Part shown: piece after piece, positions 3 to 54,973 of the stretch
Layout: every line of letters starts with the position of its first letter
How positions within the stretch are numbered: the first letter of the stretch is position 1
IMG/VR virus record: IMGVR_UViG_3300003155_000119
Location: 49,779 to 113,778 of that record
Strand: one strand, 5' to 3'
DNA: 64,000 nucleotides
DNA from: a virus
Taxonomy: Duplodnaviria > Caudoviricetes
Notes under the pieces: model-generated
What the model was told of the DNA's origin: nothing
What the model saw: only the letters and a program-made list of their open reading frames with translations
Databases searched by the model: none
Program-made: the position numbers and the translations under genes

Positions 3-2303
3 AAATGCGCCGCGGTTAGCAATGGTTTTAGTTTAGGAACGGCATCAATAACATTAACGAATAGTTTAGAAAGCGAATCTGGTTACTCTTTGACTATTGT
101 CAATGGAACGCAAGTCTTTAAATATGATGAAAATGGGGTAAGCCCAACTAGCTAGTCTAATGATGTGCCAATGGTATTAGAACCTTTGCGGCTTTAGTTA
201 ACATCTGCGGACGGGGCGGCGATAGCAGATAGCGTTTTAGAAAACTTGCCTATATCGTGGGAAATTCCGACAGAGGACACTTTGTTGATTGTAGAGGAAA
301 ATAGCCTATCAAGAATAGAACTTTCATATGACATTGCCGCATCTTATAGCTATCAAAAAACAAATAATACAATTACCGCTTCTGTTACCTACTAGGGTTA
401 GCGGTTAAGCGCAAGTACGAATTTCTTATTCTTGAAAGATGGAGACCCAGGAACAAATGGTACTAATTTCGTATGTAAGATAATACCAAATGTAGCAAGC
501 AATGTAACGCCCCCTGACCGCGTAATATATGATGTAACGCATGGAAGATTAAATTACACCCCGTCTGGCGCGAATACTTAGTGGGTAAGAGCTTAGCTTT
601 GGGAAAATGGAGAGTTAATTTTTGATGGGGTAAGTAGCTAGAATAATTTTGATGTAACTTGGAGTTTATTAGCTAATAAATATAATTATAATACTTCAGA
701 TATTTCAACTCTTTAGATAAATTCCATTACTGGATAGATTAATTGTAGTGGATATAATGAATTAAATCACGTGGCTGACATTATTAAAGTAGTAATTTCT
801 TATTAGGGAGTAGAATATGTAGGTGTCTTGCCTATTGTACTTGTAAGTATTAAAAATTTGAGTTATAATATTAGTATACCAGAAAAATCAGGATTTCAAT
901 TCGTTACTTATAGCTCAGATGGGACTAACCCCTCTTATGACAAGTCTAATCCATTTGAAGTACGAATTTTAAATAATGGTACTGATGTGAGCGAAAATAA
1001 TAATACTACTTACACATGGAATATAAAAGGCGCAATATACGAAGACAATAGCTGGAAAGAACAGTCTTTATTAACTGTCTCAAATAATGATAGTGATGCT
1101 TTAAATAAGAATTAGTAGAATTTAAAACCCTCTAGCTCTTATAATGGACTATGTGTAACTAATGCAGTAGAATGCGTTGTCCGAATAAGCGGGGCAGAAA
1201 CTGCGAGAGTTCATATCCCAGTATATCTAGGATTAAATCGTTACGGACTGGCCGCTTTAAATGGTTGGGACGGAAACAGTATACAGACTAGTGCGGAAGG
1301 CGGCTTTATTTTAGCTCCTTAGATGGGGGCTGGCCGTAAAGAAACAGATAATAGTTTCACTGGTTTAGTGATGGGCGAGGTCAAAGAAGGCGGTAGCTCA
1401 ACTAGTGAAGTTGGTTTATTTGGTTACAATAAAGGATAGAGGTCCATATTCCTTGATGCCGAAACGGGCACTGCCGCATTTGGAGTAGAAGGGAAAGGAC
1501 AAGTAATAATTGACCCAACAGAGGATAGAGCGCTATTAAGGAGTGGGAACTATAGACAAGGTTACTCTGGTATGGCTATTGATTTAACTACTCCTCAAAT
1601 TACGTATGGGAACGGAAATTTTACAGTGGACAATGAAGGTCATCTGTATGCGTCCGAAGGAGAGCTGGGAGCTGGAAGTTCAAAAATTCACCTTGGAGGA
1701 CAAGGGAGTAGAAGTTATGTCTATAGTGGCAATAAAAATACATTAACATCTACTTCTACTGGTTTCTATTTGGGAACGGATGGTTTTGCTATGGGCGCAG
1801 GAAGTTCTGGCTAGAGCGCGTTTTAGATTGATACAACTGGCGCGGTTAAAGCAACTAATATATCAGTTTAGAATGCAGCCACGAGTAATGGTAGAATTGA
1901 AATAACAGCAGGCAGCTCTTGGTCTTAGATAAACTTTTATTATGGAGGCTCAAGAAGAGGCTATATCTATGGAGGTTCTAATGGCCTAGAGATATGGGGA
2001 TCTCCAACTTATATTGGAGGCTCTAGGATGGATATTTCTGCCAGTTCTTTAGATATTAGTTCTTCTTCTATGTCAATTACGTCTAGTGTATTATATCTTA
2101 GACCAGGCACTTTATATGCGAGAACAAATTCTGGGTCAGGATATGCCCCAGCTATTAGTGCTACTTACTAGGTTTTATCATTAAAAACCCATGCTAACCC
2201 TGGAGTACCAGGCTTTCCAACTTTAACCAAAGTTTATTATAATATGACTTTTTATAATGGAATATTGGTAAATACTTCTTCTGGAGAAGAAACAGATGAA
2301 TAA
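3..2303 (+). CDS. Large tail/baseplate structural protein, 5' truncated by window edge (TAG=Gln)
   Basis: Frame 3 reads from base 3 to TAA at 2301-2303, and the stops I saw in between are TAG; joins track ORFs 828-1115 and 1572-1814; tail-type motifs LNGWDGNS, TGLVMGEV, STGFYLGTDG. Confidence 0.8.
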
Positions 2304-2332
2304 TATTTTTATGGAGGTCAAAAGGAGATAAT

Positions 2333-2656
2333 ATGACAGAAAAAGAAATTTATGATTTACAGAGAGACATATATTGGTATCTTTCAAATAGATTTTAGCA
2401 AAAAAATATTCCTCCTATTATTTAGAAATTAATAATAGAAGGTATATACTGTAAAATTTAGATGCTTGCAGAAAGTTATGATTGGAACCTTTTCATAGAA
2501 AAAAGAGTAAAAGAGAAAGAATTAAAAAATAAACAAGAAACTGAAATAATAGTTCCTGATTATATGAAAGATGAAGAGTAGTAGCCTATACCAGATTATA
2601 TAAGGGATTCAAAAGGAGTAGCTGAAGAAACTTCAGAGGGGGTTACTTATAAATGA
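2333..2656 (+). CDS. Hypothetical protein (5 in-frame TAG)
   Basis: AAGGAG RBS, ATG 2333, TGA 2654-2656 overlapping next ATG. Confidence 0.7.
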
Positions 2657-3159
2657 GTAGAATTAAAAGTTTAAAAATAAAGATAACTGATACTGATTTT
2701 GGTGAGCCAATTCCTCTTGGCGCAGATGCTACGAATGTAGATATGTCAACAGGCGAAAGTGTTGAGGAAGCAATGTTGAATAGAGTTGAGCAGGAATTCG
2801 ATAACACCGCACAAGGGGACGCATCTTTAATAAATGCTGATACTGTACAAGGAGAAGGACTAGCTCATTTATATTCGGATTTCATAGTCATAAATGTTCC
2901 AGCCTCATCTGAATAGCCAAATTAGGAAGATATGTATTTTGCGGATGTTACTGTAAGCGGGATGACGCCTCAAAAAGCTATACTCGGAATACAAATGAGT
3001 TACGATACTAGTATAGACACTCAAAAAGCTAAGGCCGCCTACTCATGGGATTATTTAGAGACTGGAACAGATAAAATATCTTTTTATGGGACCAGCTCAT
3101 GGGTTGATTCTTTTACTATTGTTGGAGTTGTGGTTTAGGCAGAGGAAGGTGAATATTAA
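2653..3159 (+). CDS. Hypothetical tail-associated protein (TAG=Gln)
   Basis: Joins track ORFs 2653-2916 and 2932-3138 in one frame; ends TAA overlapping next ATG (TAATG). Confidence 0.75.
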
Positions 3160-3713
3160 TGCCAGAAGCGCAATATTTAAAACCTTAGATTCCGTTGAAG
3201 AAGGGAGAAGATTACTTTTATCCCTTAACAACAGATGACTAGGTAATTTTATCAGATGGTCGAAGACTTAACTAGGTAGATTTTAATAACGAGCAAATAA
3301 TTTTCGTTGGGTCAAATGAAAGTTTCCCAACAAGAGGAGATTCTGGTAAAATATATGTAAAGAATAATTATTTATATATATGGAATGGTGTAAATTATTA
3401 GATACTAAGTGTTTAGACAGTAAACGGGAAGTCTGGTTAGGTAGAATTGACTGCGGCGGACGTGGGAGCTTTAAACCATCCTTCTGATATTTCTGGTGCT
3501 GCTGTAGGGTCATATTTAGTCATATAGAGTATTACGAATGGAAGAATTAATGTAGGGTTTGCGTCAATGTCGGATATTACTGGAGGCTTTATAGAAGCAG
3601 CGAATGGTAGCGAACCAGATGTTTCGTCTAGGCGCGCAAATACTCTGTATGGTGTTCAAATGAGAGTAATTAGCGGAGACAATGAATAGTCTGTTATTAG
3701 TTATAATAACTAA
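3159..3713 (+). CDS. Short tail fibre-like protein (8 in-frame TAG)
   Basis: Reads SV(Q)TVNGKSG(Q)VELTAADVGAL, a typical phage fibre repeat motif, only with TAG=Gln; not in ORF track. Confidence 0.8.
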
Positions 3714-3724
3714 GGAGGTTATTC

Positions 3725-5710
3725 ATGGGAAATAGATATTTATGGTCGCAATATGACCTTGAATCAGTATATCGGTATGATTATAATGCAGTTTCTAATA
3801 AAATAGTCCGTATAGCAGTAAGTTCTAGTAGTAATCCTTCATACAGTAATTATTAGATACTAGCGATGGCAGATAGACCTGATCCAGTAGGACGGAATCG
3901 GTGGACGTATACCGGAAAATATAAAATAGGACGCACTTATATGTATACAGATGATTACCCCTACTGCATAGTTTTATATACAAAGGCCAGTTCTAGTTTA
4001 ATAAATTCGTTGTTAGGTAAAACGTCTATTAGCACAGGCACATTTAGTGGTACTTTAAATATTGATTTTAATATTATTGGCGGAAGCACTAATTCTTCTC
4101 TCATTTGGGGAGGCGACTATATATATTGGTCTATTATGACCGCAGCAAAGACATGGGAAATAGATAAACAAGCATATACTGGTTCTTCTTCTGGATACGA
4201 AGGAGAAGTTATATTAGTATGTAGTAGTTCAGCAAATTCATCAGCAGAATCTTATAGACAAGGATTTGAATATCTTTATACTACATTAGAATATAATAAA
4301 GGAGATAAACTTGGATATAGAACTAGTAGTTCGTCATCTGCATATCCAAGTAATGATTATAGAGGCGGATATTGGTATGAATATGCTTATTACAGTGGTA
4401 ATAGATATGACAATATAGACCCAACAGCTATTTCTATTCCAGATACTATAAATGCCAATGATTATATAACCGTAACAATTACACCTAATACCGCAGGTAA
4501 CGCAAATAGCGGGATGGGAACTAATACTTATTATACTTATGAATATAAATTTGGTTCTAGTGGTTCATGGACTTAGTTCCAGCGAGCGACGACATCAACA
4601 ACCGCAACTTTATAGATTCCAGCAGGAACAAAAAGTGTTCAAGTTAGAGCTAGAGCGTCAGATACTTTAGGATTCACTTCAACAACATATGTTACTTCAT
4701 AGACCGTAGAAGTTATTAATAACTACCCACCCTCCGCGCCAGACTCAATTACCGTTACTGGAGTTCAAGTTGACCAAGAGGCGACTATAACCATAACGGA
4801 AGCAACTGATACCGATGGATATATTACTAACTACTATTGGGAGAGAAGCATAGATGGCGGGTCTTTTACTTAGATTCAAGAAACTACAAATTTAGTATTA
4901 TCAATAAAAGATTAGATTAGTGCGGACTGGGGTACGGTAACTTATAGAGTTAGAGCTAAAGATGATTATGGCGAGTATGGCGATTATGCGACTTCAACTA
5001 CTTACGAAGTTCAAGAAGGTGTTTTAATGATTTCAACACCTTCGTACAACTTAGGAGAACAAATTAGTCCATTTTATTTCATCTTTTAGATAAATGTCAC
5101 TGGAACTCCTTCTGATACAAGCGTTCATGTGGATGTATATTTAGATGGGAGACCAAAAGAATCGAAAGATACAAACTTTGCAACTGATATATCAATACCA
5201 ATAGACCCAAGATTACTAAGCGCAACAACGCATACCATAACAATTACAGCTGAGAAGGAGGGGTATACTACGGCGCAATCATCAAATGTTTTTTATATAT
5301 CTGGAATAACTGCTCCAAATGGTGGAGTAGTTGAACAATTATAGAACCCTGCGGGCCAGACTGTTTTGCCGATGACACTAGGTCAATGTGTGATTGGACG
5401 AGACGGCAAAGACATGAATACTATTATAGAAGAAGTTGAGGCGGCCCAAGCAAAAGTTTACTCTGGAAGTTATGTTGGGACTGGAACCTATGGTTCAGGA
5501 AGTCCCAATACCATTTCTGTACAGGGGACGCCTAAAATGGCGTTTATTGCTGAGTCAGGAAGCAGTTCTGGTTTAATGTGGGGAGGAAGTCCAACCGTCG
5601 GAAATGTTACTTTTAATGCGGTAGATGGAAATTTGACTTGGTATGCTTCATCTGCTTCAGCGCAGTATAATACGACAGGAACTAATTATTATTATATGAT
5701 ATTAGTATAA
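3725..5710 (+). CDS. Tail-associated protein with fibronectin type III-like repeats (TAG=Gln)
   Basis: GGAGG RBS; joins track ORFs 3866, 5129, 5366 in one frame; FN3-like segments NYPPSAPDSITV, VTYRVRAKDDYG. Confidence 0.75.
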
Positions 5711-5723
5711 GGAGGAAATATAT

Positions 5724-6017
5724 ATGAAGATAATTAAAAATACTCCATTTAAGAACGGAGCTTATCCATCTATTTAGAACTGGGACGGGATTTCCGCTCC
5801 AGAAGGCTATTATATATGGCTAGATGGGCTAGACACAGAAAATTTTTACCAGTATAATGGTTTTGTAACATTAAATGTTTTAAGAGGAGCTGTAATTAGC
5901 TATACTCCTAATGAAGAGGCTTGGGAGGCATGGAAAGCCACATTGCCGCCAGAACCAGAACCTGAAACAACAGATACTGAAATATTAAATATGCTTTTAG
6001 GAATGGAGGAGGAATAA
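5724..6017 (+). CDS. Small hypothetical protein, tail-fibre assembly-like (1 TAG)
   Basis: AAGGAGG RBS, ATG 5724, TAA 6015-6017; ends PPEPEPETTDTEILNMLLG. Confidence 0.7.
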
Positions 6018-6020
6018 TTT

Positions 6021-6650
6021 ATGGCTATAACAAGAAAACAAGCAGCTGAGCAACTAAGAAAAGCTATTCAACTATTTATAAATTCATTAGATGAAGAAAC
6101 CGCACTAGAGGTTGCTACAGTCTATCCTGCGTGGAAAGTCAACACTTATTATGCGAAAGGCTAGATTATCAGTTATGGGACTAATTCTGTTGGGGACCCT
6201 CAACTATATAAAGTAATTACTGGACATACTTCTCAGGCGGATTGGACTCCAGACACCTAGGCCGCATTATTTGATGCTTTTGGTTTGGACGAAAGCGGCT
6301 ACTCTATTTGGGCGCAACCCGCTGGAGCTCATGACGCATATAATATTGGAGATGAAGTGAATTATAAAGGTTCTATATATCGCTCTTTAATTAATGGAAA
6401 CGTATGGGCGCCAGATGTTTATACGGCAGGATGGGAACTTGTAAAAGAGAGTCCAGAAGAGCCAGAGGGACCTGACGAGCCTATTACCGAGGAATATCCA
6501 GATTGGGTGAGACCTACTGGCGCGCATGATGCTTATAATATTGGAGATATAGTTAAGTATAATGGAAAACTTTATCAATCTACTATTGATGGAAACGTAT
6601 GGGCGCCAGATGAATATCCAGCTGGATGGACTTTATACGAGGAAACATGA
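6021..6650 (+). CDS. Carbohydrate-binding (CBM5/12, chitin-binding-like) repeat protein (2 TAG)
   Basis: Repeats W.QPxGAHDAYNIGD.V.Y.G..Y.S.I.GNVWAPD.Y.AGW; N-terminal extension through TAGs gives YPAW..HTSQADWTPD. Confidence 0.8.
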
Positions 6651-6775
6651 AAATAGTAAATCCTTTATTATATTAGGAAGTTTATAATACAGCTGTAAGC
6701 GTTCGATAGTAGGTGCCGCAAGAGATAGTAGACGAAGAAGAGGAGGAAGATGTGTTAAATGAAAATAATAAATAA
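6647..6775 (+). CDS. Small acidic peptide (3 TAG)
   Basis: ATGA overlap with upstream stop; 42 codons to TAA; fills the gap between neighbours. Confidence 0.45.
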
Positions 6776-8126
6776 TTTGCGTTTTAAGACATATATTCCT
6801 CCTGTAATAAAAGCAACTAATTTATACGTTACAGAAGAAAATATAAATCTAGGTAATGATAATTATATTCTTACTTATTACTTAGAACCAGAAGATGTTG
6901 ACACGAAATCTATTGATTGGTACTATTTGCCGAAGGATGGAAATTTAATTATTACCGCGTTAGATAATAATAGAATATCCATATATAGAGCGCCAACGAT
7001 TTAGCCAAATACAACTTATACACTAGTACTTCAAACAATAGACGGAAGTAATTTAGAAGATTCTGTTTCTATCTTTATAGAAGATACTACTGTCTATGTA
7101 AATAATATTACTTTTAGTCCAAGGTCTTTAGAAATTCCTGTGGGCGGTCAAGGGCAATTTGCTTTTACGGTACTGCCGTCTGACGCGACGAATCGCAATA
7201 TAGAATTAAAAGTAACGAGCGCCGCAGGTGGGAATACTAGCGGAATAACAGTGTCAAAAGAATCAAGTATTGTGACCGTTTAGACGACAGACTCTGCGGA
7301 ATTGGGCCAGTATACAATTACTGGAACCGCGTAGGACGGAAGCGGTGTTACTGGTTCTTGCTCTTTTACTATTGTTAAGGCAAGTAGTTCTGAGGAAGAG
7401 ATAGAGGAGCATAGAAGCACATGGCGCGGAACAGATTTATTATCTAGCGGACATTTTTCTGACATAGATGAAATTGCTGATGCTGTTGCGACAGGAGATT
7501 TTTCTGATATATGGGTTGGTGATTATTTCACTATTAATGGGCCTATATTTAATAATAGCAGTATCTTAGGTTATGATGAGTATAATTTAGTTGTAATGGA
7601 CATTAATACTATTTCTAGTTTGAGTTAGCCTCATCTTGTTTTAATGCCAGACCACATTATTGGAGTAACTAATTCATTATAGCCAAATAGATATAACTTA
7701 TATGAAGCAGCTGTTTCCAATATGCTGCAAGTTTATTCTCAGTCGTTGAAAGTCTATCTAGGAGAGAATAATTTAATTGATTTTACAGACAGGATGCCTA
7801 CAGAAACTTAGTATTCAGCTACCTTCCCTGGAATTACGCTACCAAGTGTAAAGAGTTTAACTAATTCTTATTCTAACGTGAATCCTCTTTCTATGAGTTC
7901 AGTATTTGTATCAGTCCTTCCAGGAATTTCATTAAGTAGTTCAGGAGCTGGACGACCTACTCTTTCAGCTTTAGCTTCCTATTAGGCTATTGCCATGTAT
8001 GCGGTTAGTGATTTAAATAATACGAATGAGTACTTAATTACGGTTATGAATAATGGATAGCTAATGTCTAATGCAATGTTTCAAAATATGTCTTTAGGTA
8101 TTTGTCCATTATTAATTTTTGGTTGA
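6759..8126 (+). CDS. Ig-like (Big_2-type) domain tail/decoration protein (TAG=Gln)
   Basis: Ig-like motifs TVLPSDATNR, TGTA(Q)DGSGVTGSC; C-terminal HRSTWRG..GDFSDIWVGDYF..PHLVLMPD segment typical of Firmicutes phage tail proteins. Confidence 0.75.
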
Positions 8127-8146
8127 TAGGAGGGATAATAAAGAAA

Positions 8147-8515
8147 ATGAGAATATATAATCCAATATACCCTTCCATTAAAGACAATTTAGAAGAATTA
8201 TTTGGGAAGGCTCCTACCTCAATTACTTTAACATCTTATTCCGCTTAGTATTCTATTGCGGATCAAGGTACTTGTAAAATAAAAGGGTACGTTTATCCAC
8301 AAGACGCATTAAATTAGCAGGTGCTAATAACTTATACGTCTTAGAAAGAAGGTTCTGTCTTAACATATTCTATTAACTATGGAGAAGATTCTACAGGAAA
8401 ATATTTTGAGATTTCTGTTTCGACAACAATAGAAGATGTTTATAGTATAAGGGTTAAAGCAAAAGGGAATTCGTCTGTACAAGCAGATATTTTTACTTTG
8501 ACCGCAGTTAGCTAA
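8147..8515 (+). CDS. Single Ig-like domain protein (3 TAG)
   Basis: GGAGG RBS; VYPQDALN(Q)QV Ig-like motif; ends TAA 8513-8515. Confidence 0.65.
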
Positions 8516-8717
8516 ATATCTAGTTCAGGATATTATCCAGTCCGACTATGAGGAAGGACCAGTCTGTCCTATAATTATATTTGGCTGATAGAAAAATAAA
8601 AAGGAAATATGTTAAAATTACTAGAGGATGGTCTAAAATAGATTATCCTCTTTTATCTTTTTTCAATATATTTATAATAATTTTTAAGAGTAGAGGAGGA
8701 GGAGGAGGTCTAGCAAG

Positions 8718-9278
8718 ATGATAGACTTATTAGAAAAATATTCTATTACAGACATTATAATATTTTTAGTTTTTCTTGCTCTTGCCGCAAAAGAACTAAT
8801 TACCTTCATAGAATGGTCAAAAAGTAAAATAAGAGAAGCAGGGTTAGAAGCCACAATGGATAAGAGAGAAGAAGAGAAATTAGATGGTTATGACGAAGCT
8901 ATAAGAAAGAATAATTCAAGAATAGTAAATTTAGAGAAGGAGTTAGAATCATTATCAGAAGAAGTAACTAAATTAGAAAAAGATTTTAATGAGCACTTAG
9001 ATGAGACTAAAGAAATAAAAGATAGTTTAAGTAGATTGAATACTAATATTTCTTTGCTCTTGGAATCTAATAGAGATATTATTAAAACTACTTTAACAGA
9101 AAAACATCATTATTATTGTTATAGTAAAAAGTGGATTGATGACTACAGTCTTGAATGTTGCGAAAAATTATTTCAACATTATAAATAGGAAGGCGGGAAC
9201 TCTTTTATTGAGCACTTCATGGAAGATTTAAGAAGTTTACCTACTTCTGAAGAAAAAAGGAGAGAAAAGGATGGCTAA
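8718..9278 (+). CDS. Membrane-anchored coiled-coil protein (holin-like/lysis-associated family; 1 TAG)
   Basis: N-terminal hydrophobic helix, coiled coil; read-through of TAG 9186-9188 restores HYK(Q)EGGNSFIEHFMEDLRSLP, the Y..xGGN...M...LP tail common in phage proteins of this type. Confidence 0.7.
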
Positions 9279-11892
9279 TTTAAATATTACTTTATACCCA
9301 CCACAAATACCCACATATCAGAATGCTTTTGTTCTAACGTCTAAATGCCGCATTTATTTTTCTTTATCTATATACAATAGCTATAAAGATATATAGAATA
9401 ATGCGCAAGTAACAGTATCGAATTAGAATACGAATCAATCAGTTCTTTCTTTAACTAAGTATCCTAATGAAATAAAGTTATGTGATGTGAAAATAGATAA
9501 TACTAAGAGTTCTGATAGATATTATATAGAAATTGAGCCAGAAGACTTATAGAATGGCTTTTAGATAAATCAATATTATAAAGTTTAGATAAGATTCACT
9601 AGTGCGGATGCGCCGACTCCACCAGATTCTGCGGCTATAAATAAATGGTTAGTTGATAACGTTGACTATTTTTCTGAATGGTCTACTGTATGTTTAGTTA
9701 GAGCTATCAGTTAGCCAATTTTAACTCTATAGAATCTTTCTTCTAGCTCAGGAGAGGAAGGCTCTAATGTCGCTATTACAACGAATACCTTGGATATAGT
9801 AGGTAGTTTAACTTTTCAAGATTCACACGAGAGTGATTCACTAAGTAGTTATTAGATAAAACTATATGACGAAGATAATAATTTACTGACTGATAGTAGA
9901 ATTATTTATACTAGTGCATACAACAATCCAAATGAAATAAATTATACTTTAAAATATATTTTAGAAAACGGGTCTGCTTATACAGTAACTATTGATATTG
10001 CAACTAATAACTATTATTATTAGACTTTTACTTATAATATTATTGTTATTTAGACACATGAAAATCCATTAAATGCGTTAGTTGTTGCGGAAAATGAAAA
10101 AGAATCTGGCCGCATTAAATTGACAATAGCTAGTACCACTACAGATACTTTCCAAGGTAGCGTCATTATAAGACGGACTTCTAATAGAAGTAATTTCACT
10201 ATATGGGAAGATATTTATACGAGAGTTTATCCTACCAAAGAATTAATTAACTTTACTTGGTATGATTGCACTGTTGAGAGCGGAATCTGGTATAATTATT
10301 CAGTGCAGAAAAAAGACGTATCTGGACAAAGAGGGGAAGAGACGTACATCGAGAAACCGGTTTCAGCGTATTTCGAAGATATGTTCTTAAATGCGGAAAA
10401 ACAATAGCTAAGAATAAGATACAACCCCGCGGTCTCAACTATGCGGCAAAACGTATCTGAAGCCAGAGCCGAAACACTTGGTTCTTAGTATCCTATTATT
10501 AGACGAAATGGATATATTAACTACCGTTCTTTAAATATTTCTGGACTAATTACTGCACTTGATGACTTTAAGGATATTTTTACAAGTAAAGAAGAATTGT
10601 ATGGCAAGGAAGCAACATCTTTATATGATGATTATAATGAGGAAGAAAGAATTACTGAATATAATGATTATATACTAGAGAGAGAATTTAGAGAAAAAGT
10701 AATTACTTTCTTATATAAAGACAATATAAAATTGCTTAGAACACTTACAGAAGGCAACGTCTTAGTAAAATTAATGAATATTTCCTTAACTCCGCAAACT
10801 ACTTTAGGAAGAATGATTTATTCCTTCTCAGCTGAGGTGTATGAAGTAGCAGAATGCTCTTTAGATAATTTTATCAACTATGGAATTATTGAAACAGAGG
10901 AAGATAATATAATATTTGAACAAGAGGAAGAAGAAACAGTTACGCGGAAAGAGGTACTTGGTTAGATTCAGGATACTATCTCCGCAGATACTAATATCGT
11001 TGAATTGATTAAAGAGAAACACGAAACAGATGCGGTTTCAGTTGAGTTGATACAAGATATTAAGTTCTCCTTTTATGATGACCCGTATTAGATAAAAGAG
11101 GACCCGTCAGGTAATTTATTGCCCCTGGCCGCAACAGATGATTAGTCTTTGTCTATTGGTTTAGGCTATATCATTTATATAAATGGAGAGTCAATAATGG
11201 TAAGCGAGGACGGCGTATATTCTCTTATGGATTTAAATGAAATGTTGACGTCAGTTACTTTTCCTATTGATTCGTTTGTGTCTATTGACTACATTGCGGT
11301 CTTAGCTGAAGAAAAAAGTGTTGAACCAGAGAGTTAGATAACGAGTTCTATCTATTATTATAATGATATTGTTGGTCAAATCTGGGGAGGCTTTAACTAC
11401 GGAGAATCTTTATATGAGTATATTGAAGCTAAGTACGCATTCAATTATGATAACTATAACTAGAGATTAATCTATATAGGAGATATTTCAATAGAAGCAA
11501 ATACTAATATGGTATTTTATATATAGACAGATGAAGAATCTACCCCTTTGCGCAATGTTATAAATGAAACAAATGTTTTAACTATTCAAGATAAAACTCT
11601 AAAAATAAGAGATATTTTATTTGGAGGTATTCATCTTGACAAAGAAACAGATAAAAATAAAGAACTTGTTAATTCAAATAAATATTATCAAGAAGATAAA
11701 GAATATAGTTCCTTGGCCGCAATAGGATACCCCCAAGCCAACCATGTATATGTAGTTGATAATGAGAGATATATATGGTATAATGAAAATTGGGAAAATA
11801 TAAATGAGAATGATGATGTAGAAATTCCTACTAGCGGTCTTATTGATTATTATTGTAGAATTGTAAGGGAGGTTTATTTATTGAATGAATGA
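9271..11892 (+). CDS. Large baseplate/tail protein, about 870 aa (TAG=Gln)
   Basis: Joins track ORFs 10120, 10597, 11149, 11548, all in one frame; RAETLGS(Q)YPIIRRNG and LGRMIYSFS motifs. Confidence 0.8.
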
Positions 11893-13933
11893 TAGACCTT
11901 ATTTAAGAGATAAAAATTTTCTAAAGACAATAGACAGAATCTCTTTAAAAGAAGAATTTGCTAAAATAACTATACTAAATTGGCAAGAGCGCCCAATAGA
12001 AGACATACAAGGAAAAGTTAGTTCTGGTACTTTAAATATTAATGGTAATTCCTCCTTGCGCCGCACTTGCAATCTAACTATCTTAATTGACGAAAATAAT
12101 TCAAATATTACTAGTGTAAAAAATTCTTTGTCTATAAATAAAAAAATAAAATTAGACATTGGGATAAAAAACAATACTAGCCAGTATTCAGAGTATGACA
12201 TTATATGGTTTTCTCTTGGGACATATATAATATCTAGTGTTTCAATTACAAATACAAATAGCTAGATAACCTCAGCATCTTTGCAACTGAAAGATAAAAT
12301 GTGTTTATTAAATGGGGAATGTGGCGGGCTCCTTCCGGCGAGCGTTACATTTAGTTCTTATGATACTTTAGACGCCAATGGCGCATATCAAACAGAGCAG
12401 CCTACGATTTATACAATTATTAAATATGTTGTTAATTATTTTGGCGGAGAGTAGCTACCTAAAATTTTAATTAGTGATGTAGACGAGAGAGTTAGAAAAG
12501 TTATGAAATGGACTGGTTCTAATCCTTTATATATTACTCAATACACTAGCACAACATCTGGTGTATAGTATGGAGCTACTACAGATAAAGAGCAGGTAGA
12601 CGAAGCACTTGCCGCGGGAACGATTGATTCTTATACAGAATATAAAAGCGGCCAAGATGTAGGATACATTTATACAGATTTTATTTATCCAGGAGAATTA
12701 ATTGGAGACGCTGGAAATTCTGTCTGTGATATATTAGATAAGATAAAAAGCGCTTTGGGCAATTATGAATATTTTTATGATTTAGATGGGAATTTTATTT
12801 TTCAAGAGATAAAGAATTATTTAAATACATCTAAATCAACTACTGATTTGAATGACATGGAATAGAACAATTATTTAATAGATATTACAAAAGGAAAGTC
12901 TGTTTATACCTTTGATGATAGTTTCCTAATTTCCTCTTATTCAAATGCCCCTTAGTATAGTATGATTAAAAATGATTATATAGTGTGGGGGATGAGAGAA
13001 GATGCTACAACAGGAGCTACATACCCTATACGGTATCATTTAGCTATTGATACAAAACCCTAGACAGGTAATACTTACAAAGTGTTCTTTTATGATGACC
13101 CAGATGACGGAATACGAAAAGCAAAGCGGCCAATACAATTTTCTACTAGAAACGGATTTCCTGCTTAGGGCGCGGAAGATACATTTTATCTTGCTCTTGA
13201 TACTAATATTGTATATAAATGGGATACTGAATAGAACACTTATGTGAGGTTCGCTACACAGACAAAAGATATAACAACTACTGATTGGCGGACAGAGCTT
13301 TATTTATCTGGAGCGCAGGCAGAAGGTTTTAGTTTAGATACAAACAATTATTATACTGAGTTAAATAATGAATGGCCTAAAATGTATGATATAGAGAACG
13401 GGGAATTTTATGAGGGATACGAGAAAGACCCCGCTTCTTTAGATTATTTTTTAGATTTTATAGATTCGTCTGCGGCAATAGGTGAACTTAGTATATCGAA
13501 CATTGGGAAGCGTTCTAAAATAGTTGTAGACGAGGACATCAACTGCATATTTGAAAGAGAAATTCCTAATTTGGTAATGATAGATGCTAGTTAGGATTCT
13601 GCTATTGTAACGGAATAGAGAGAGGAAGCATAGCGCAAAGGGCAAGATTATATACAAGTCACTGGGGCTATTTACAACTTATTAGCTACTGGTGGGACTT
13701 AGAATTCTGCTTTTGAGCGGGTTAAGGAACTAATATATTAGTATACTAGTTATAACGAAAGTATTACTTTACAATGCTTACCTATATATTACTTAGATGT
13801 TAATTAGAGAATTACTGTTAATGATTCAAAAAGTAATATCTATGGAGACTATATGATTAATTCGATTTCAATTCCTCTTAATATATCTAGTATGATGACA
13901 ATATCTGCAACGAGAGCGTTAGAAAGATTTTAA
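11885..13933 (+). CDS. Baseplate hub / tail protein, about 680 aa (TAG=Gln)
   Basis: Joins track ORFs 11885 and 13244; INGNSSLRRTCNLT, QLKDKMCLLNGECGG, LGNYEYFYDLDGNFIFQEI; ends TAA 13931-13933. Confidence 0.8.
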
Positions 13934-13946
13934 GGAGGCAAATAAA

Positions 13947-14492
13947 GTGATTGGACAATTAAGAAGAAATAAAATAAATGATTATATATCTGATATAGAT
14001 ACTTCTTTTTCAGATAATATTATTACAGGAAATTTTATTGCCGCAAAGCATTACTATATAAGCATTGATATAAACACAACAACTCAATAGGAGTAGAATA
14101 TTTCAATAGTTTTAAAGAATTCTGAGAACGAACAACAAGAGCAAACAATAAAAAGAATGAAAATAATAAATGGAAATAATGAATCTATTGAAACGGTTTT
14201 CGTTCCTAATGCGGCATATGATTAGATAATTATAAAAGACTGCACTAATTACACCGTCGTTCTTAACTAGGCCGCAGAAATAAATAATGTCCTCACTAAA
14301 CTTAATATTAATAAACTAACTAAGATTGGCGTTCAAGGTCCGTCTGGTTTAGTAATGGATATTAATGGCGAAGAAATTAGGGTTGGAAGATTTGGAATAT
14401 ATGAGTTAATAAGAAGGATAGATATAGACTTTATCAGTTTTATTGTTAATAATGATGATAATAGATTTTTTATTCTTGATTATTAGTATTAA
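13947..14492 (+). CDS. Hypothetical protein with C-terminal ING..I.(I/V)G..G.YE domain (TAG=Gln)
   Basis: AAGGAGG RBS, GTG start; KIGVQGPSGLVMDINGEEIRVGRFGIYEL; paralogous to 16265 and 59577 genes. Confidence 0.75.
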
Positions 14493-14511
14493 ATAAAGGA
14501 GGGAAAATACT

Positions 14512-16260
14512 ATGGCTGATTATGGTTTTTATGGTGGTCGAAGAGGTCAACCATTTATTCTAAGAACGAATTTTCCTTCTATTCAGGATATGATAGATGC
14601 TTTTTCTTAGGGGAAAGAATATACAGAAGTAAAATTTGATGAATATGTTATTATAGACACTGCGGACAAGGGTAATGACGACAATGGAAAAATCTATCGG
14701 CGCGGGTATGATTACACTAATGACATGGGCGGTGCTGAATATATATGCTAGATAAAAGGAAGCGGAGGCGCCAGTCCGCATTTATTACTTACTACTATTG
14801 ATAATATTAATTAGCTGAAATAGTAGCAAGATGTTTCATTCACCGGTGAAGGCGAGTACTCTTATACGGAGAATAATTTAGTTCCAGGTAAAGATGGTGA
14901 TTCATATAATGATTCCATTACTTGGGCCTATTGTTCAGTGAAGAATCCTGATGGAACTGATACTATCTCATACATAGGATTCACTTTCCCTTATACAGTA
15001 ATTGACTATGAAGCAGAAAGTGTTCCATATGATTATGAAGGTACTTTAGTTGAAAGACAAGACACAGCTGATCACCCTTTTTATGAGAAGTGGAAGTTAA
15101 AAATTCCTAGGGGCGCAAAAGGTGATACTATAGAAAATATTCGCGTCATAACTCCCACCGCGGAAAACGTACAAGATTATACTGGTAAAGATGATGACGT
15201 AGCTAATCAAAGACAAATTATAGTTTATGATTAGACCGCCTATGAAGAAAACACCCAGGGCGAAATTCAAACTTTATACCTAGGTGATTATAATATGATT
15301 CAAAGTCTTTCTATGGACGAGGACGGTCATATTACGATTCATTACACTCATGGAGAGGACTAGCTTATAACAGTAATTGCAAGATGGATTACTGCTGTTC
15401 ATTTATCAGAGACTGGTTAGCTGTCAATAGATTATACAACAGGAGAATCTACTTAGGTAGAAAATGTTATAAAATGGATAGACACTATTAGTTTATCTGA
15501 TGAAGGTAATTTAATAGTTACTTATAATGATGGAACATCAGACACCATCCAAGAAGGTATTAAGTGGATTACGGATGTTTCACTATCTGATAATGGAACA
15601 TTTAGAATAGAATTTGGAAATAATTTACCTGCATACGAAGCGACAATTAAATTCCCCACATTAGTAACTTTAGATACAGGAGATGAAGAAGGGGAAGGCT
15701 CTTAGAAAGTTAAAGTAACATATAATGATGGAACATCTCAAGAATTAGGCAATCCATTGAACTATATTATGCGGATGGTTCTAAATGAAGAGGATTATCA
15801 TATATTGGTGTTATTTAGCGACCCGGCTAAGAGACAATAGATAGTAGAATCTGGAGAAGCAAAATCTTATGACGGAAGAAACGACTGGTATGATTTAGGT
15901 GCTGTAAAAGAAGACTCTGGTATTCTCATAGGAATGAATTTAACATTAGACCATTTTACTGGCGGCACTTCAAATATAAGAATAATTAATTAGTTAAATC
16001 AGGAATATCCATCAGGACTCCCCTCCTCAGATGTTAATTTACATGGAAAAATCATTACCGTGGGTGACGCAGACGATGATAAAAAGTTCTTTGCTTTTGA
16101 TTACAATACTGATTCTTGGTATTATGTAGGAAACACATCTGCGGCAGGTCAGGTTACTTAGACTCAAGGTATTATAGTTGGGTACGAGGATGATGATGAA
16201 CTGATTTAGCAAGCGGAAGATTTGCCAGTCGGCACTGTTTGGATGATTGAGGAGGATTAA
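14512..16260 (+). CDS. Tail fibre/baseplate-attached protein, about 580 aa (TAG=Gln)
   Basis: AAGGAGG RBS; begins MADYGFYGGRRG; repeated (I/R/K)WI..(V/I).LS..G.L.(I/V).Y..G units; contains track ORF 14938-15234. Confidence 0.75.
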
Positions 16261-16264
16261 GTAA

Positions 16265-16507
16265 ATGAGTAAGAAAATTTAGTTAAAAGGCCCTTTCAAA
16301 GCCGAAACAGAATTGTTAAAAGATTTATATGAAAAAATAAATAAGATTAGTATTTTTTGTAAACCAGAACATCTTATCGTCATTAACGGAATGACATTCG
16401 AGATAGGAAAGACTGGAATGCTAGAAATAGAAGGGACTAATATTGAATCTTTAAAGTTCTAGCAAGACGAAGATGAAAATACTTATATAGACTTTTTAGA
16501 ATTATAA
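16265..16507 (+). CDS. Small protein paralogous to 59577-59861 (2 TAG)
   Basis: MSKKI(Q)LKGPF...VINGMTFEIGKTGMLEI...IESLKF..TYIDF aligns by eye with GQVLGPF...EINGVQIKIGKTGIYEL...IKSLKF..TIIDF. Confidence 0.75.
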
Positions 16508-16512
16508 AAAAT

Positions 16513-16618
16513 ATGCTCTGCGGTCAAAGGAAAAATAAGCCGCAGAGCATTTTATTTTCTGATATAATAAGAAGAACAAGGCACAGACGATACTTTATTC
16601 ATCTGTGCCTTTTATTTT
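16513..16618 (+). terminator. Two tandem intrinsic terminators closing the tail operon
   Basis: ATGCTCTGCGG/CCGCAGAGCAT (16513-16550) and AAGGCACAGA/TCTGTGCCTT (16578-16611), each followed by T-rich tract. Confidence 0.7.
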
Positions 16619-16738
16619 GTGTATCCTGTTAATTTTAATAAAATATATTAAAATTTGGTCAAAGAAAGTAAGGAAATTTTAATTAAAATTTATATATAGT
16701 GTAAAGACATGAAAGAAAGGAAGGTTAAGACAAAATTG

Positions 16739-17194
16739 ATGAATTATTATAATAATTATCCTTATAATTATAGCTTTGGAGTTAATCCATACCTCCAACA
16801 GTAGCCAAGTTATTCATATCAATAGGCGCCGGCCGCACCTAATAGCACTAATATACTAAATGGAAAAATAGTAGATAGTGAAGATATGGTAAAAGCAACT
16901 GAAGTCCCGATTGGCGGTTTTGGAATATTCCCCAAAGCTGACTTAAGTGAAATCTATATAAAGTCTTGGAATAATAATGGTACAACAAATTTAATAACTT
17001 TTAAGCCATATATTCCACCTGCCGCAGAACAAAATAATAATAGCAATAGCTTAGTTGACTTTACTATTGTTAATGAGATACTAGAAAAAGTTTCTGCATT
17101 GGAAGGGAAGATAGATACTATATTAAATATTAAAAGCAATGCTCCAGTCTCAATAGCACAATAGAAAGAAGGTCTTAAAGCAAATGGCTATTAA
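16739..17194 (+). CDS. Hypothetical protein, Tyr/Asn/Gln-rich N-terminus (gene 1 of six-gene operon; 3 TAG)
   Basis: Extends track ORF 16886-17164 both ways through TAG; LNGKIVDSEDMVKATEVPIGG..FPKADLSEIYIKSW. Confidence 0.75.
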
Positions 17195-17441
17195 TAATTT
17201 TGGAATGAATCCTATGCAATTATTTCAGTTCGTCCAAGCGCAGAAAAATCCCCAGCAATTTATGCTGAATGCTTTAAAGCAGGGAGGAAGTAATAATCCT
17301 GTTTTAGCAAATATTGTTAGTCTAGCGGAGCAAGGAAAAACTAATGAAATTGAATAGGTAGTAAGAAATGTCTTTAAAGAGAGAGGTCTTGATTTTGATA
17401 AAGAGTTTACAAGTTTCAAGCAATAGCTTGGAATAAAATAA
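17184..17441 (+). CDS. Hypothetical helical protein with NP(M/Q)Q motifs (gene 2; 2 TAG)
   Basis: MNPMQLFQFVQAQKNPQQFM...NNPVLANIV...RNVFKERGLDFD; ends TAA 17439-17441. Confidence 0.7.
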
Positions 17442-17470
17442 AGTAATAAAATAAACGGAGGTAAAGGTAT

Positions 17471-18331
17471 ATGTTTAATAATGCAAATGGTTATAGTCTA
17501 TCAGACATTGCGGCAGTTACGAATGCTGAATCCAATAGATGTTGCAATAACGGCAATGGATTTGGCTTTGATAATGGCGCCTGGTGGATTATTATCCTGT
17601 TCCTGTTCTGCTTTGCGGGATGGAGCGGCAACGGAATGTTTGGAGGCGGATTCGGTGGAAGTCCGACATACCAAGGCACAACAACTCGTGAAGAAATTGC
17701 TTACGGATTCGATATGAACGGCTTAGAGAACGGAATCCGTGGAATTTAGAACGGGCTATGTGATGGATTCTATAATATGAATACTAGCCTATTGACTGGC
17801 TTTAATGGATTACAAAATTCAATGAACCAAGGTTTCGCTGGATTAAATACTGTAATCAATAATTCCACTTCAAACATCCAGCAGGATTTAAATAGCATTA
17901 ATATTGCTAATATGCAGAATACTAATGCTATTACAGCTCAGTTAAATGCGCTTGGGACTCAACAAGCCGATTGTTGTTGCTAGACTCAAAGACAGCTGGA
18001 ACGCGGTTTCGCGGATTTGGGGTACAATCTTGCAACACAAGAATGCCAGACTCGTCAAGCAATAAACGACAGCACAAGAGACATAGTAGATAATCAGAAT
18101 GCTGGAGTTCGGTCTATCCTTGATTTCTTAACTCAGGATAAGATTGCAACTCTTCAAGCTGAGAATCAGAGTCTGAAGTTTGCGGCATCTCAAGCTAATC
18201 AAAACAACTATTTAGTTAACACTTTGCGGCCCTGCCCAATTCCTGCATATATTCAGCCAAACCCTTTCTGCAATTATGATTATTTAAGTCTATACAGAAA
18301 TGGTTGCTGCAATAATACCGGTTGCTGCTAA
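17471..18331 (+). CDS. Gly-rich membrane-anchored N/Q coiled-coil protein with Cys clusters (gene 3; 2 TAG)
   Basis: Joins track ORFs 17471, 17777, 18017 in one frame: GIRGI(Q)NGLCDGFY and ADCCC(Q)TQRQL; WWIIILFLFCFAGW helix; C-terminal PCPIPAY..GCCNNTGCC. Confidence 0.85.
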
Positions 18332-18363
18332 TTAAATAATAAGAATGGAGGAAAGATAAAAGT

Positions 18364-18786
18364 ATGGAAATTACTGCCAATGCTTTACAAACAGTAGAAG
18401 CAAACCAAAACGTTTTATTTACGGATACCGCAGTATGTGGTAGCTGCTCCATAATTCACAGAGATGGAAGCGGACTAGTCACTTTACGCGCGTTACCAAA
18501 TAATCAATGTAGAGCTAGATTCAGAGTGACCTTTGGCGGCAATATTGAAGTTCCAACAGGCGGAACATTAGGTCCTATATCTTTAGCTATTGCGGTTAAT
18601 GGAGAGCCAGTTGGTGCTACCACTATGATTTCAACCCCGGCCGCACTAGAAGAATTAAATAATGTATTTAGTAGTGTTTTCTTAGATGTCCCTATTGGAT
18701 GTTGCTCTCAAGTGAGTGTTAAAAATACTAGCTCTTAGTCTATTGGTGTATAGAATGCTAATTTGATTGTAGAAAGAGTTGCTTAA
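18364..18786 (+). CDS. Beta-rich protein, possibly BclA C-terminal/C1q-like (gene 4; 2 TAG)
   Basis: All-beta pattern; read-through gives SVKNTSS(Q)SIGV(Q)NANLIVERVA then TAA; fold call is tentative. Confidence 0.7.
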
Positions 18787-18802
18787 GGAGGAGGAATAAA
18801 GT

Positions 18803-19396
18803 ATGGAAAGATTAAAAAACATGAAAGAAACTCTTCTGTCAGCAGCTCAATCATAGATGGGGAATCTTGCGGCTGCCGATACAAAAGAGTTAGGTCAAGT
18901 AATTGATATGATAAAAGATTTAGAGGAAGCAATTTATTATTGTTCAATTACAGAGGCTATGAAGGAAAACAAAGAAAAAGAGAAGTATAGTCAAATGTAT
19001 TATCAGGAGAGATATTTGCCAATTCCAATGATGAATGAAATGTATCAAAGAGATATGGATAGAAATAGCTATGGAAGAATGTATTACCCAGACCGCATAA
19101 TGAACAATAGAGACGAATCTACTAATAGAGGTGGTTCTCGCTATTATACGGAAAGAGATTGGGATACATATCCAATTAATACAAGAGACAGTAGAGAAGG
19201 ACGAAGTCCTTTAAGCCGAAAAAGCTATATGGAAGCCAAAGAACTACATCAAGGTAAAGAGATACAGATGAAAGAACTTGATAAATATATTCAAGAACTA
19301 GGTCATGACATTACTGAGATGATTCAAGATGCTTCGCCAGAAGAGAAACAAATGCTGCAACAGAAGATTAGTGCTTTAGCCACTAAAATAAAATAA
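18803..19396 (+). CDS. Hypothetical protein (gene 5; 1 TAG)
   Basis: AAGGAGGAGG RBS, ATG 18803; ELGQVIDMIKDL, REGRSPLSRKSYMEAKE, EMIQDASPEEKQML. Confidence 0.8.
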
Positions 19397-19405
19397 TAAA
19401 ATGAA

Positions 19406-19729
19406 ATGTTTAATATTAATGGTGAAGAATGGCGCATAGTCTCTGTTTCATCTAATCATCCAAAACTATATAGAAGCAACGGTTCTTTAGCTGTGGCAAC
19501 GTGCGATGACAATAGCAAAACGATTTATTTAAATAATACTTTAAAAGGTAAATTCTTGAAAAAAGTTCTATGCCATGAAATTACTCATGCGGCAATGTTT
19601 TCTTATAATGTAGATTTGACTATTGATTAGGAAGAATTGCTAGCAGATTTAATTGCTACTTATGGAGAGGAAATTATTCAAATTACTAATAAAGTATTCA
19701 GACGTATGAGAGGAAGATTCTTATTTTGA
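19406..19729 (+). CDS. Small HEXXH zinc metallopeptidase-like protein (gene 6; 1 TAG)
   Basis: VLCHEITHAAMF followed, through TAG, by ID(Q)EELLAD providing a candidate third zinc ligand Glu. Confidence 0.75.
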
Positions 19730-21056: not shown

Positions 21057-21325
21057 AATACCTCAATTTCTAAATTATTTTTATTATACGTTGCCATTTC
21101 TTTTTCTTTAATCTTTTGAACAATTTTTTCTGTAAATTTCTTTGGGCCTACAATAGTTATTTTGCTAAAATCTTCATAATGGCCGTCTGTAGTAATGATA
21201 CCAAAAATATCGTTTGGTATATTAGAAACTGTGCTATTTACAGAAGCAAATTTATGACCATTTTCGTATCCCTCGACTTTCTGTGTCATAGCAAAAGGTT
21301 GAATCATTACAATAATCTTCTTCAT
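21053..21325 (-). CDS. Hypothetical protein
   Basis: Intact ORF, overlaps neighbours by 1-4 nt. Confidence 0.65.
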   Translation of the reverse strand: MKKIIVMIQPFAMTQKVEGYENGHKFASVNSTVSNIPNDIFGIITTDGHYEDFSKITIVGPKKFTEKIVQKIKEKEMATYNKNNLEIEVF

Positions 21326-21783
21326 TATATCTCAATTACTCCTTCGTTGTAAGGAAATAGATAATAACATAGCATACCTTTTTCTGCGTCCTTCAACCAA
21401 ATTTCTATAGCATAATTATCTTCTGTATTTTCTATACTATAGACTTTTCCTCTGTTCTTTAAACAAATCCTTAATTCATCACAAGCTATAAGAATTGGTT
21501 CGTGAAAGTCTAAATAATTGCGAACATTGAACAAGGTATAGTTATTATCTTCTTTACACAATAGCATAAAGTAACAATTATCAAAATCTTCTTTATTTAT
21601 TCTCTATTCAATATTTTTTTTGAAGAAAGGGGCCACAATGTAATCTAAAGCATCATATAGATTTTCATCTGTCATAGGATTTTCTGTCTATTCTATTATC
21701 TATTTATTTAAATCATATAGAGTTGCTCCGCTTATTTTTGTTTTTTCACTTTTCTAAAACTCTTTAATTTTATTATTTGTCAT
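21325..21783 (-). CDS. Hypothetical protein (4 TAG)
   Basis: AAGGAG RBS and ATG at 21783 in frame with track ORF 21325-21567 through four TAGs. Confidence 0.7.
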
Positions 21784-51194: not shown

Positions 51195-51982
51195 TCTCCT
51201 CTTTGTTCTTCCTCAAAATATCTCCACTTAAATCCACCACAAAAATTTCTTCTTCCCTTACAGACTTTAATAATAGCACTCGAATCACAATTATTCATCC
51301 GACTAGCTAAAGCCGCAGTATCATAAATATCTATTATTTCATTAGTATTTGGGTCTATTTTTACAACTTTCTTACTCTTGGACTGAATTTGCGTTGTATT
51401 TTTATCTCCTTTATACTAATATCCAGTATAATTAGGTATAGCCAGTTCATTATTATCATTTAGCCAACAAAAATATCTATTAGAAGTTGTTTTCTATTCT
51501 CCTCGACAACAAGCTGCTATCTTTCTTTCATCGCATCCTGTCTATTCTGCACAATCAACAATACTTCTGTATATATTAATAATATTAAAATTCTTATCAA
51601 TTTCTGCAACACATTTTGCTTTATTTCTTTTTGTCTCTCTAATTTTTTGATAAGTATTAGCGTCATTTATAGGATGCTCTGTATTAATGGTTTGATTGTA
51701 ACCATTTGGAGATAACGAATTCATTTTTATGATATAACGCTATTCTATTTCACGAATTTCCTGCTCAGAGCACTCTTTTTCTTCCAAAATTTCAAATTTA
51801 AAATTATTTATTCCATATTTTCTTATTGCCGAATATAAAGGATAATTATATTTTGGATTATTTTTATGAGTTGCATTATATATATGCTAATTAAATCTTC
51901 TTTTTGGTTCGTTTATTGTAGAGCCAATATATTTTTTATTATTTATTAAATTAGTAAAACAATAAATATAATTTTTCGCCAT
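51191..51982 (-). CDS. Free-standing GIY-YIG endonuclease with two NUMOD1-like repeats (5 TAG)
   Basis: YIYCFTNLINNKKYIGST, PNGYN, IAACCRGE, IIKVCKGRR..GGFKWRY; TGA overlaps gyrB GTG. Confidence 0.85.
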
Positions 51983-54109: not shown

Positions 54110-54139
54110 AACTTTATTTATCTTACTCCTTTCTATTGT

Positions 54140-54911: not shown

Positions 54912-54973
54912 CACCTTAAAAAAACTCTATTCTTCATAAGGTACATGAAAAATAGAGCAATTAAATTATCTTA

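Follow-up and report, generated by a model that had tools for sequence, protein, structure and literature searches.

A 64,000-nucleotide stretch of a phage genome (hereafter the window), comprising bases 49779-113778 of the 113,778-bp virus record IMGVR_UViG_3300003155_000119, had been proposed in a first-pass annotation to reassign the stop codon TAG. Our analysis indicates that UAG is very probably read as glutamine (Gln) in the virion, fibre, lysis and free-standing nuclease genes of this phage, with the phage's own tRNA-CUA as the likely decoder. In the window TAG is a sense codon and never a terminator, and alignment with homologous sequences shows its meaning to be Gln. The decoder most likely lies in a tRNA array just past the end of the record, where a longer contig of the same phage contains an intron-split tRNA-CUA gene.

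TAG is a sense codon in the late genes

Coding coverage was scored as stop-to-stop open reading frames (ORFs) of at least 100 amino acids (aa) in the first five 4-kb bins of the window. Under code 11, coverage per bin was 0.21, 0.33, 0.45, 0.26 and 0.47; with TAG as a sense codon it rose to 1.00, 0.97, 0.96, 1.00 and 0.88, bearing out the claim that + strand genes between 3 and 19729 are broken by TAG and giving the gain for which a comparison of codes 11 and 15 had been suggested. Across the full window, coverage increased from 0.69 to 0.95. Treating TGA as sense gave 0.21, 0.41, 0.45, 0.26 and 0.58 in the five bins, and TGA recoding was ruled out because coding density was not improved. Treating TAA as sense likewise lifted coverage, to 0.66-0.90, a trivial gain because it removes the commonest stop triplet in 35% GC DNA.

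Reading TAG as Gln on the + strand from 3 to 19729 yields 21 consecutive genes with 1-19 in-frame TAGs apiece. Together they contain 124 TAG among 6377 codons, alongside 128 CAA and 44 CAG, so that TAG occurs at 19.4 per 1000 codons and accounts for 42% of the putative Gln codons. Intergenic gaps in this block are mostly -8 to +32 nt, with several neighbours overlapping by 1, 4 or 8 nt, and a Shine-Dalgarno motif of the AGGAG/GGAGG type precedes 16 of 20 starts (background 10%). The same-frame fragments thus do join into tightly packed genes led by ribosome-binding sites, as the first reading had it. Its statement that genes end in TAA or TGA extends to every model in the window: the 21 + strand genes terminate in TAA (16) or TGA (5) and the 35 genes on the - strand in TAA (23) or TGA (12), with TAG as terminator in 0 of 56. 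Early genes were also checked for a TAG close to the 3' end followed by an unsupported extension, and none was found.

The extent of recoding is larger than first described. The interval 3-19729 is recoded, but the full block begins at genome position 18916, ~31 kb upstream of the window; recoding then resumes on the + strand at 59885-64000, and TAG also appears within a small number of genes on the - strand. All four motifs cited in the first-pass annotation exist (asterisks mark TAG). SV*TVNGKSG*VEL (3408) and KI*LKGPF (16274; paralogue GQVLGPF at 59598) lie inside 3-19729, but GD*G*QGIQ (61580) belongs to the collagen-like fibre gene at 59885-64000 and VKEF*KAHGL (53536, - strand) to the endolysin.

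TAG stands for glutamine

To identify the encoded residue, window genes were translated with X at each TAG and compared by tblastn with relatives in IMG/VR. High-scoring segment pairs (HSPs) free of any stop formed a standard-code set covering 83 TAG columns. In this set, Gln made up 28.3% of the residues opposite TAG, against a background of 3.1% and 32.8% opposite the phage's own CAA and CAG codons. Over all HSPs and the stop-free set, the profile opposite TAG (Gln 25-28%, Lys 10%, Glu 8%) matched that opposite true Gln codons (Gln 31-33%, Lys 8%, Glu 8%) and that of no other residue. In the stop-free set, Gln had the highest likelihood, exceeding Lys by 363 log units and Ser by 486, and its lead ranged from 363 to 635 log units across HSP sets. 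Among columns conserved at 70% or more, 15 of 19 were Gln. Homologue columns opposite TAG are therefore Gln-dominated, and the proposed assignment holds.

The portal gene, which lies upstream of the window, gave a similar picture. Opposite its 20 TAGs, 44% of residues were Gln in 46 standard-code relatives, and six of its TAG columns were almost invariantly Gln across 80 relatives.

A split tRNA-CUA gene lies beyond the end of the record

No tRNA gene was found in the window or in the whole 113.8-kb contig (ARAGORN; Rfam RF00005), or by the same two tools in 113 structural-module loci of relatives. In five relatives, arrays of 24-28 tRNAs occupy the map position just past the end of this contig. 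The contig is thus cut just before the tRNA array, and the decoder is therefore apparently missing from the record. A chicken-gut contig in ENA, k127_4248 (139,878 bp), matches 15.2 kb of this contig, up to its last base, at 99.95% identity and extends beyond it. Going outward, it contains the complete fibre gene, small genes including one with a YqeY domain, and a tRNA array (22 tRNAs or more) accompanied by a ROOL RNA and a gene for sigma-70.

Standard tRNA calling of the k127_4248 array reported no CUA tRNA. A 96-nt tRNA of the relative G001 has a homologue there in two pieces (coordinates of the locus L146): exon 1 at 8558-8592, ending ...GAGUCUCU, and exon 2 at 8802-8862, beginning AAAACUCC..., separated by a 209-nt intron (8593-8801). 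The joined exons form a 96-nt, five-arm cloverleaf with anticodon loop CUCUAAA and anticodon CUA, matching the intron-less G001 gene. An intron-containing tRNA-CUA gene thus exists in the same phage. The earlier statement that the window lacks a CUA tRNA stands, but the longer contig supplies a non-canonical one. The wider search that had been recommended was likewise fruitful for the tRNA, but returned no release factor or Gln/Glu-tRNA synthetase; neither was present in the gene tables of flanking loci from the same or near phages.

The same split gene recurs in three more relatives, at 84-98% identity. Exons, anticodon and extra arm are all preserved, and one base pair of the extra arm has changed in a compensatory way, from U-A to C-G; no other CUA tRNA was called in these three. 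Across the family, tRNA-CUA was found in 7 of 7 recoded members (this phage counted) and in 0 of 4 standard-code relatives. Recoding itself is graded: the portal gene has no in-frame stop in 46 of 80 relatives and 1-10 TAGs in the others, the 20 of this phage being the most. Two relatives whose portals hold 1-5 TAGs have an ordinary 74-nt tRNA-CUA without extra arm (L142 5181-5254 and L173 4544-4617), so that two or more types of suppressor exist within the family.

Several other candidates were rejected. ARAGORN labelled the long tRNAs 'Phe aaa' or '??? taaa', calls that require unpaired stems, whereas in the minimum-free-energy folds the loop CUCUAAA caps a fully paired 5-bp stem. A CTCTAAA in tRNA-Arg(UCU) at L146 9206 does not mark a suppressor, as its loop register gives UCU. 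The YqeY/GatB-like protein encoded beside the array (L146 10489-10950) was considered as a recoding helper; it occurs in 4 of 4 relatives with the extra-armed tRNA but also in 3 of 4 standard-code ones, and is absent from both relatives with the ordinary tRNA-CUA. The ROOL RNA within the array is full length (RF03087, 301 bits; L146 5345-5932).

The fifth arm of the suppressor repeats the anticodon loop of tRNA-Gln(CUG)

The extra arm of the suppressor is a 6-bp hairpin at the variable-arm position, between the anticodon and T arms. Its 5-6-bp stem varies by lineage (CUAGGG, CCAGGG, CCAUCC, CACGG and UACGG), whereas the 7-nt loop is constant: CUCUGAC or UUCUGAC (YUCUGAC) on five unrelated stems, in CUA tRNAs from different large phages. 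In the relative G003, this loop equals the anticodon loop of the neighbouring tRNA-Gln(CUG). CUA tRNAs with this extra arm were also seen on contigs of unrelated phages (174 and 402 kb), where they retain a Gln-like UGGGG...G73 acceptor. Acceptors of the family vary, with UGGGG...G73 in the homologues from L148 and L153 and UGGGG with A73 in G003.

The suppressor's own anticodon is CUA, with A36, and the CUG-containing loop YUCUGAC is displayed on the extra arm instead. This suggests a reading in which the CUA anticodon has lost G36 and the extra arm consequently presents the loop of tRNA-Gln(CUG). We regard it as a tentative proposal, somewhat less than probable, that the arm serves as a spare anticodon telling the host synthetase which amino acid to load. 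A comparable pattern was seen at the opal codon. A scan for UCA tRNAs in IMG/VR loci L178-L254 fixed the anticodon loop and T loop only and did not impose any extra-arm sequence; in all 22 distinct extra-armed opal tRNAs of phages, the loop of that arm contains UCCAA(A), the anticodon of tRNA-Trp. The proposed spare-anticodon rule therefore appears to be general across amber (Gln CUG) and opal (Trp) phage tRNAs. The 3-bp CUCUGAA arms of L156, L157, L159 and L161-L163 were not accepted as support, as an alternative 5-bp stem with a GAA loop can form. We found no paper describing an intron-split CUA tRNA or a spare-anticodon arm.

A true GlnRS is encoded in each of the bacterial genomes, three from Oscillospiraceae and one from Clostridiaceae, that contain the closest relatives of the fibre C-terminal domain. 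The host is probably a member of the Oscillospiraceae, the link through the fibre domain being a hint.

A probable group I intron interrupts the anticodon loop

The 209-nt insert matched the Rfam model Intron_gpI (RF00028) over its full length (1-253) with 41.2 bits and E = 3e-9 in a 441-nt search. It is inserted after C34-U35, with boundaries fixed by the intron-less homologue in G001; the 5' exon ends CUCU (U) and the intron ends ACG (G). The conserved core segments AGACUAUA and AAGAAAUAGUCC are present, and a putative P1 pairing (U8.G16, C7-G17 and U6-A18) can be read by eye from the sequence. The suppressor precursor would be expected to splice in vivo.

A second tRNA in the array, tRNA-Leu(UAA) (L146 5949-6262), is also split, by an insert after U34, the classical position; this intron was not detected by Rfam, and the gene is intact and intron-less in the relative L164 (15738-15824). 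Four further group I introns score above the Rfam gathering threshold in late-arm genes upstream of the window (L002 5005-5220, 5460-5714, 5904-6105 and 17309-17565; genome 23005-24105 and 35309-35565). Three of these lie close together, flanked by the ORFs at genome 22251-23039 and 24141-24860.

Proposed mechanism and alternative explanations

We propose that the TAG-free early genes would be expressed first by host ribosomes, after which the tRNA array would be transcribed and the suppressor precursor would splice itself. A host enzyme, probably GlnRS, would charge the spliced tRNA with Gln, and only thereafter could full-length products be made from the late, lysis and nuclease genes with their many TAGs. 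Both Gln charging and the timing function are inferred.

Several observations weigh against this model in whole or in part. The suppressor is off the window's contig and is assigned to this phage through a 99.9%-identical contig. Positions 27 and 43 of its anticodon stem form an A-C mismatch, and ARAGORN detects the spliced form at a relaxed threshold only, with the anticodon misread. The intron score of 41 bits falls short of the Rfam gathering threshold of 50, and the intron was not reported in a 10.5-kb search. The identity set recognized by an E. coli-type GlnRS includes U1-A72, G2-C71, G3-C70 and G73, which this phage's suppressor, with A1-U72, G2-C71, A3-U70 and A73, does not match; the set's anticodon bases C/U34, U35 and G36, normally in a 7-nt loop, might be presented by the CUG loop of the extra arm. 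About one-fifth of the conserved TAG columns are not Gln (for example, Lys, Asp, Gly or Tyr). Lastly, neither a phage release factor (PF00472) nor a Gln/Glu-tRNA synthetase core (PF00749) was found in the contig.

Some of these points might suggest that TAG is sense but encodes another amino acid, with SerRS or LeuRS charging the suppressor. SerRS recognizes long variable arms independently of the anticodon, and the 6-bp arm at the variable position resembles those of class II tRNAs (Ser, Leu and Tyr) and of allo-tRNAs, on a tRNA that lacks the U1-A72 and G73 marks of tRNA-Gln. Yet the extra-arm loop copies the Gln anticodon loop, unlike an arm of the Ser or Leu type, and residues opposite TAG are Ser in 5%, Leu in 4% and Tyr in 3% of cases, against 25-28% for Gln. 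With Ser 486-838 log-likelihood units below Gln, and Gln in those 15 of 19 conserved columns, we judge this explanation highly improbable. About as improbable, though marginally less so, is that the host itself decodes UAG, through a TAG-sense code or a suppressor of its own, and that the phage tRNA-CUA is dispensable or a pseudogene broken by an insertion. The absence of the suppressor from the record's contig would fit, as would the fact that the sole candidate gene is interrupted and uncalled by standard tools. The interruption, however, shows a putative group I core between canonical ends, the split gene is kept in four phages with its functional parts intact and one compensatory change, and tRNA-CUA tracks recoding (7/7 versus 0/4); the early genes, moreover, are nearly free of TAG, as expected for expression in a standard-code cell. 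That the TAGs are not decoded at all, reflecting pseudogenes, sequencing or assembly errors or programmed readthrough at a few sites, would account for the fragmentation of the late block under code 11 and draws no other support. It can be practically dismissed: only TAG of the three stops interrupts the frames, frameshifts are absent, the frames are otherwise open over as much as 873 aa (and, upstream of the window, 2921 aa) in 35% GC DNA, independent assemblies are 99.9-100% identical, and TAG columns align with conserved Gln.

The intron's position within the anticodon means that no decoder exists until splicing, and its retention in four related phages could be taken to indicate that it is no selfish element but evolved as a timer to postpone the code switch. 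We consider this unlikely, and the intron is probably a mobile passenger. It appears mobile and dispensable because the array's other split tRNA, Leu(UAA), is intron-less in L164, because the genome has at least four other group I introns in protein genes, and because G001, the closest IMG/VR relative, is recoded with an intron-less suppressor.

Relation to known recoded phages and tRNAs

Phages with TAG reassigned to Gln were reportedly described by Ivanova in 2014. As the first-pass annotation noted, code 15 is known in gut phages, and this lineage is a further example of an established recoding. Like code-15 gut phages (crAss-like, Lak and Garnet/Amethyst/Agate/Topaz), it has TAG in structural, lysis and homing-endonuclease genes, keeps its replication genes largely in the standard code, has close standard-code relatives and encodes a CUA tRNA. 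In genome size and likely Firmicutes host it resembles the large Firmicutes-infecting code-15 clades. Unlike them, it has no close match among GenBank phages (megablast of 23.7 kb against GenBank phage records returned only a 52-nt chance match), no phage RF2 was found, and its suppressor is intron-split, five-armed and overlooked by standard tRNA finders. Relatives of the portal number 280 in IMG/VR, and their contigs reach 100-163 kb.

The suppressor shares its CUA anticodon with the E. coli amber suppressor supE (glnV), along with the UGGGG acceptor start in G003, L148 and L153 and G73 in L148 and L153. tRNA-Gln is normally a class I tRNA, and supE is an ordinary one of 75 nt, whereas the phage tRNAs add a hairpin with a CUG anticodon loop and the copy in this phage has A1-U72 and A73. 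The intron resembles the group I (IC3-type) introns of bacterial and plastid tRNA genes, such as tRNA-Leu(UAA), in its length of ~210 nt, its location in the anticodon loop, the U at the exon end and the G at the intron end. It differs in residing in an amber suppressor of a phage, in being inserted after position 35 rather than 34, and in an Rfam score below gathering. An extra helix between the anticodon and T arms is also found in class II tRNAs and allo-tRNAs (PMC5389517); unlike in those, the 7-nt loop here copies an anticodon loop (YUCUGAC) and the residue is Gln.

Borges et al. (bioRxiv 10.1101/2021.08.26.457843) reported that TAG is concentrated in late and lysis genes of recoded phages, a pattern that the TAG-bearing genes of the - strand arm follow here, and that a TAG suppressor was detected in only 40% of TAG-recoded genomes, with non-canonical tRNAs suspected. 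Proteomics has shown TAG to be read as Gln in crAss-like phages (Peters et al., PMC9523058). In the present phage, the suppressor was masked in three ways: the contig stops short of it, a probable group I intron splits its anticodon, and its fifth arm misleads tRNA finders. If correct, a spare-anticodon arm together with intron splitting would account for the apparent lack of a suppressor in many recoded phages, and the fifth arm suggests a testable way for a stop-reading tRNA to keep its amino-acid identity. Annotation under code 11 breaks about one-third of the phage's genes into spurious fragments, among them all the tail and fibre genes of the window. A lineage of roughly 140-kb phages, probably infecting Oscillospiraceae, thus joins the known code-15 phages, and its portal genes, with 0 to 20 TAG codons within the family, offer a series for studying how a code change spreads.

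Genome layout and distribution of TAG

The window shows the layout of a large tailed phage with a genome of roughly 140 kb, from gut habitats (chicken and other); the record has a GC content of 34.6% and a CheckV completeness of 73%. The late arm runs on the + strand from genome 18.9 kb to window position 19729 and encodes the portal (phrog_2739), a 2921-aa protein and tail, fibre and decoration proteins. A replication and nucleotide-metabolism arm of 35 genes follows on the - strand (19763-59426), with genes for NrdD, Pol III alpha, RecD-like and DnaB-like helicases with inteins, RecJ, NAD ligase, GyrA and GyrB. Beyond it, a collagen-like fibre gene with 15 TAGs (59885-64000, + strand; Collagen and DUF6273 Pfam matches) runs off the contig end.

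The virion and tail-fibre block (3-19729, + strand) opens with the 3' portion of a gene for a 1236-aa virion protein (3-2303), which starts 1407 nt before the window and has 19 TAGs inside it; TAG columns 198 and 440 are Gln in 8 of 11 and 9 of 12 standard-code homologues. Genes for a Hoc-like head-decoration protein (3725-5710; 8 TAGs; phrog_10993, E = 1.6e-24) and a carbohydrate-binding CBM_5_12 fibre protein (6021-6650; 2 TAGs; PF02839, E = 5.7e-19) follow. An 873-aa structural protein (9271-11892; phrog_30026) has 18 TAGs, of which columns 52, 106, 379, 565 and 731 are Gln in 9-13 of 12-13 standard-code homologues. The overlapping gene for a 682-aa tail protein (11885-13933; phrog_32343, 8.8e-48; phrog_1887) has 14 TAGs, and its columns 190, 357 and 619 are Gln in 13-14 of 14 homologues. 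A 582-aa Rib/Ig-like surface protein with weak aRib/Rib Pfam matches (14512-16260) also has 14 TAGs. The final six genes (16655-19729) contain 1-4 each, the last encoding a SprT/metallopeptidase-like protein, and Gln-conserved TAG columns fall within 18364-18786, 18803-19396 and 19406-19729.

The - strand arm is nearly TAG-free, with 25 TAGs in 11969 codons and none inside the genes for NrdD, Pol III alpha, the RecD-like and DnaB-like helicases, NAD ligase, GyrA or GyrB. The long gene model for Pol III alpha has a TAG at codon 6, and its true start is probably downstream. The TAGs of this arm sit in genes for RuvC-like, HNH and three GIY-YIG proteins, RecJ, and an M15/PG_binding endolysin with two small neighbours; a hypothetical gene at 21325-21783 (- strand) has 4. 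In the RecJ-like exonuclease gene (34111-35874, - strand), the TAG at codon 427 is spanned by the DHHA1 domain (374-454) and followed by RecJ_OB (483-576), indicating that it is read through. A GIY-YIG homing-endonuclease-like gene (51191-51982, - strand; PF01541, I-HmuI NUMOD) has 5 TAGs. The lysis cassette (53456-54914, - strand) combines the M15 endolysin with PG_binding_1, with 2 TAGs, and two small genes with 3 each; codon 196 of the endolysin, a TAG, falls within PG_binding_1 (178-215).

In the late arm upstream of the window, a trio of TAG-free genes (191, 343 and 193 aa; L002 10203-12484, genome 28203-30484) is flanked by heavily recoded genes. The 343-aa product corresponds to phrog_4088, and the trio probably includes scaffold and major capsid genes; the reassigned codon may be disfavoured in virion genes with high expression.

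The fibre gene at 59885-64000 is complete at 1397 aa in the longer contig of the same phage, and is the break point of two independent assemblies. Its 3' end is 45-60% GC (61500-64000, especially 62258-64000) within a 35% GC genome; the last TAG is at 62255, and the GC-rich 3' 1.7 kb has none and prefers CAG. The DUF6273 domain is 49-59% identical to proteins of three Oscillospiraceae genomes, including Colidextribacter and Acutalibacter, and the 3' end looks like a recently acquired receptor-binding module, which would be a hint to the host. On the - strand, LAGLIDADG/Hom_end domains lie mid-protein in the RecD-like and DnaB-like helicases (31450-33747 and 36972-39599), consistent with inteins.

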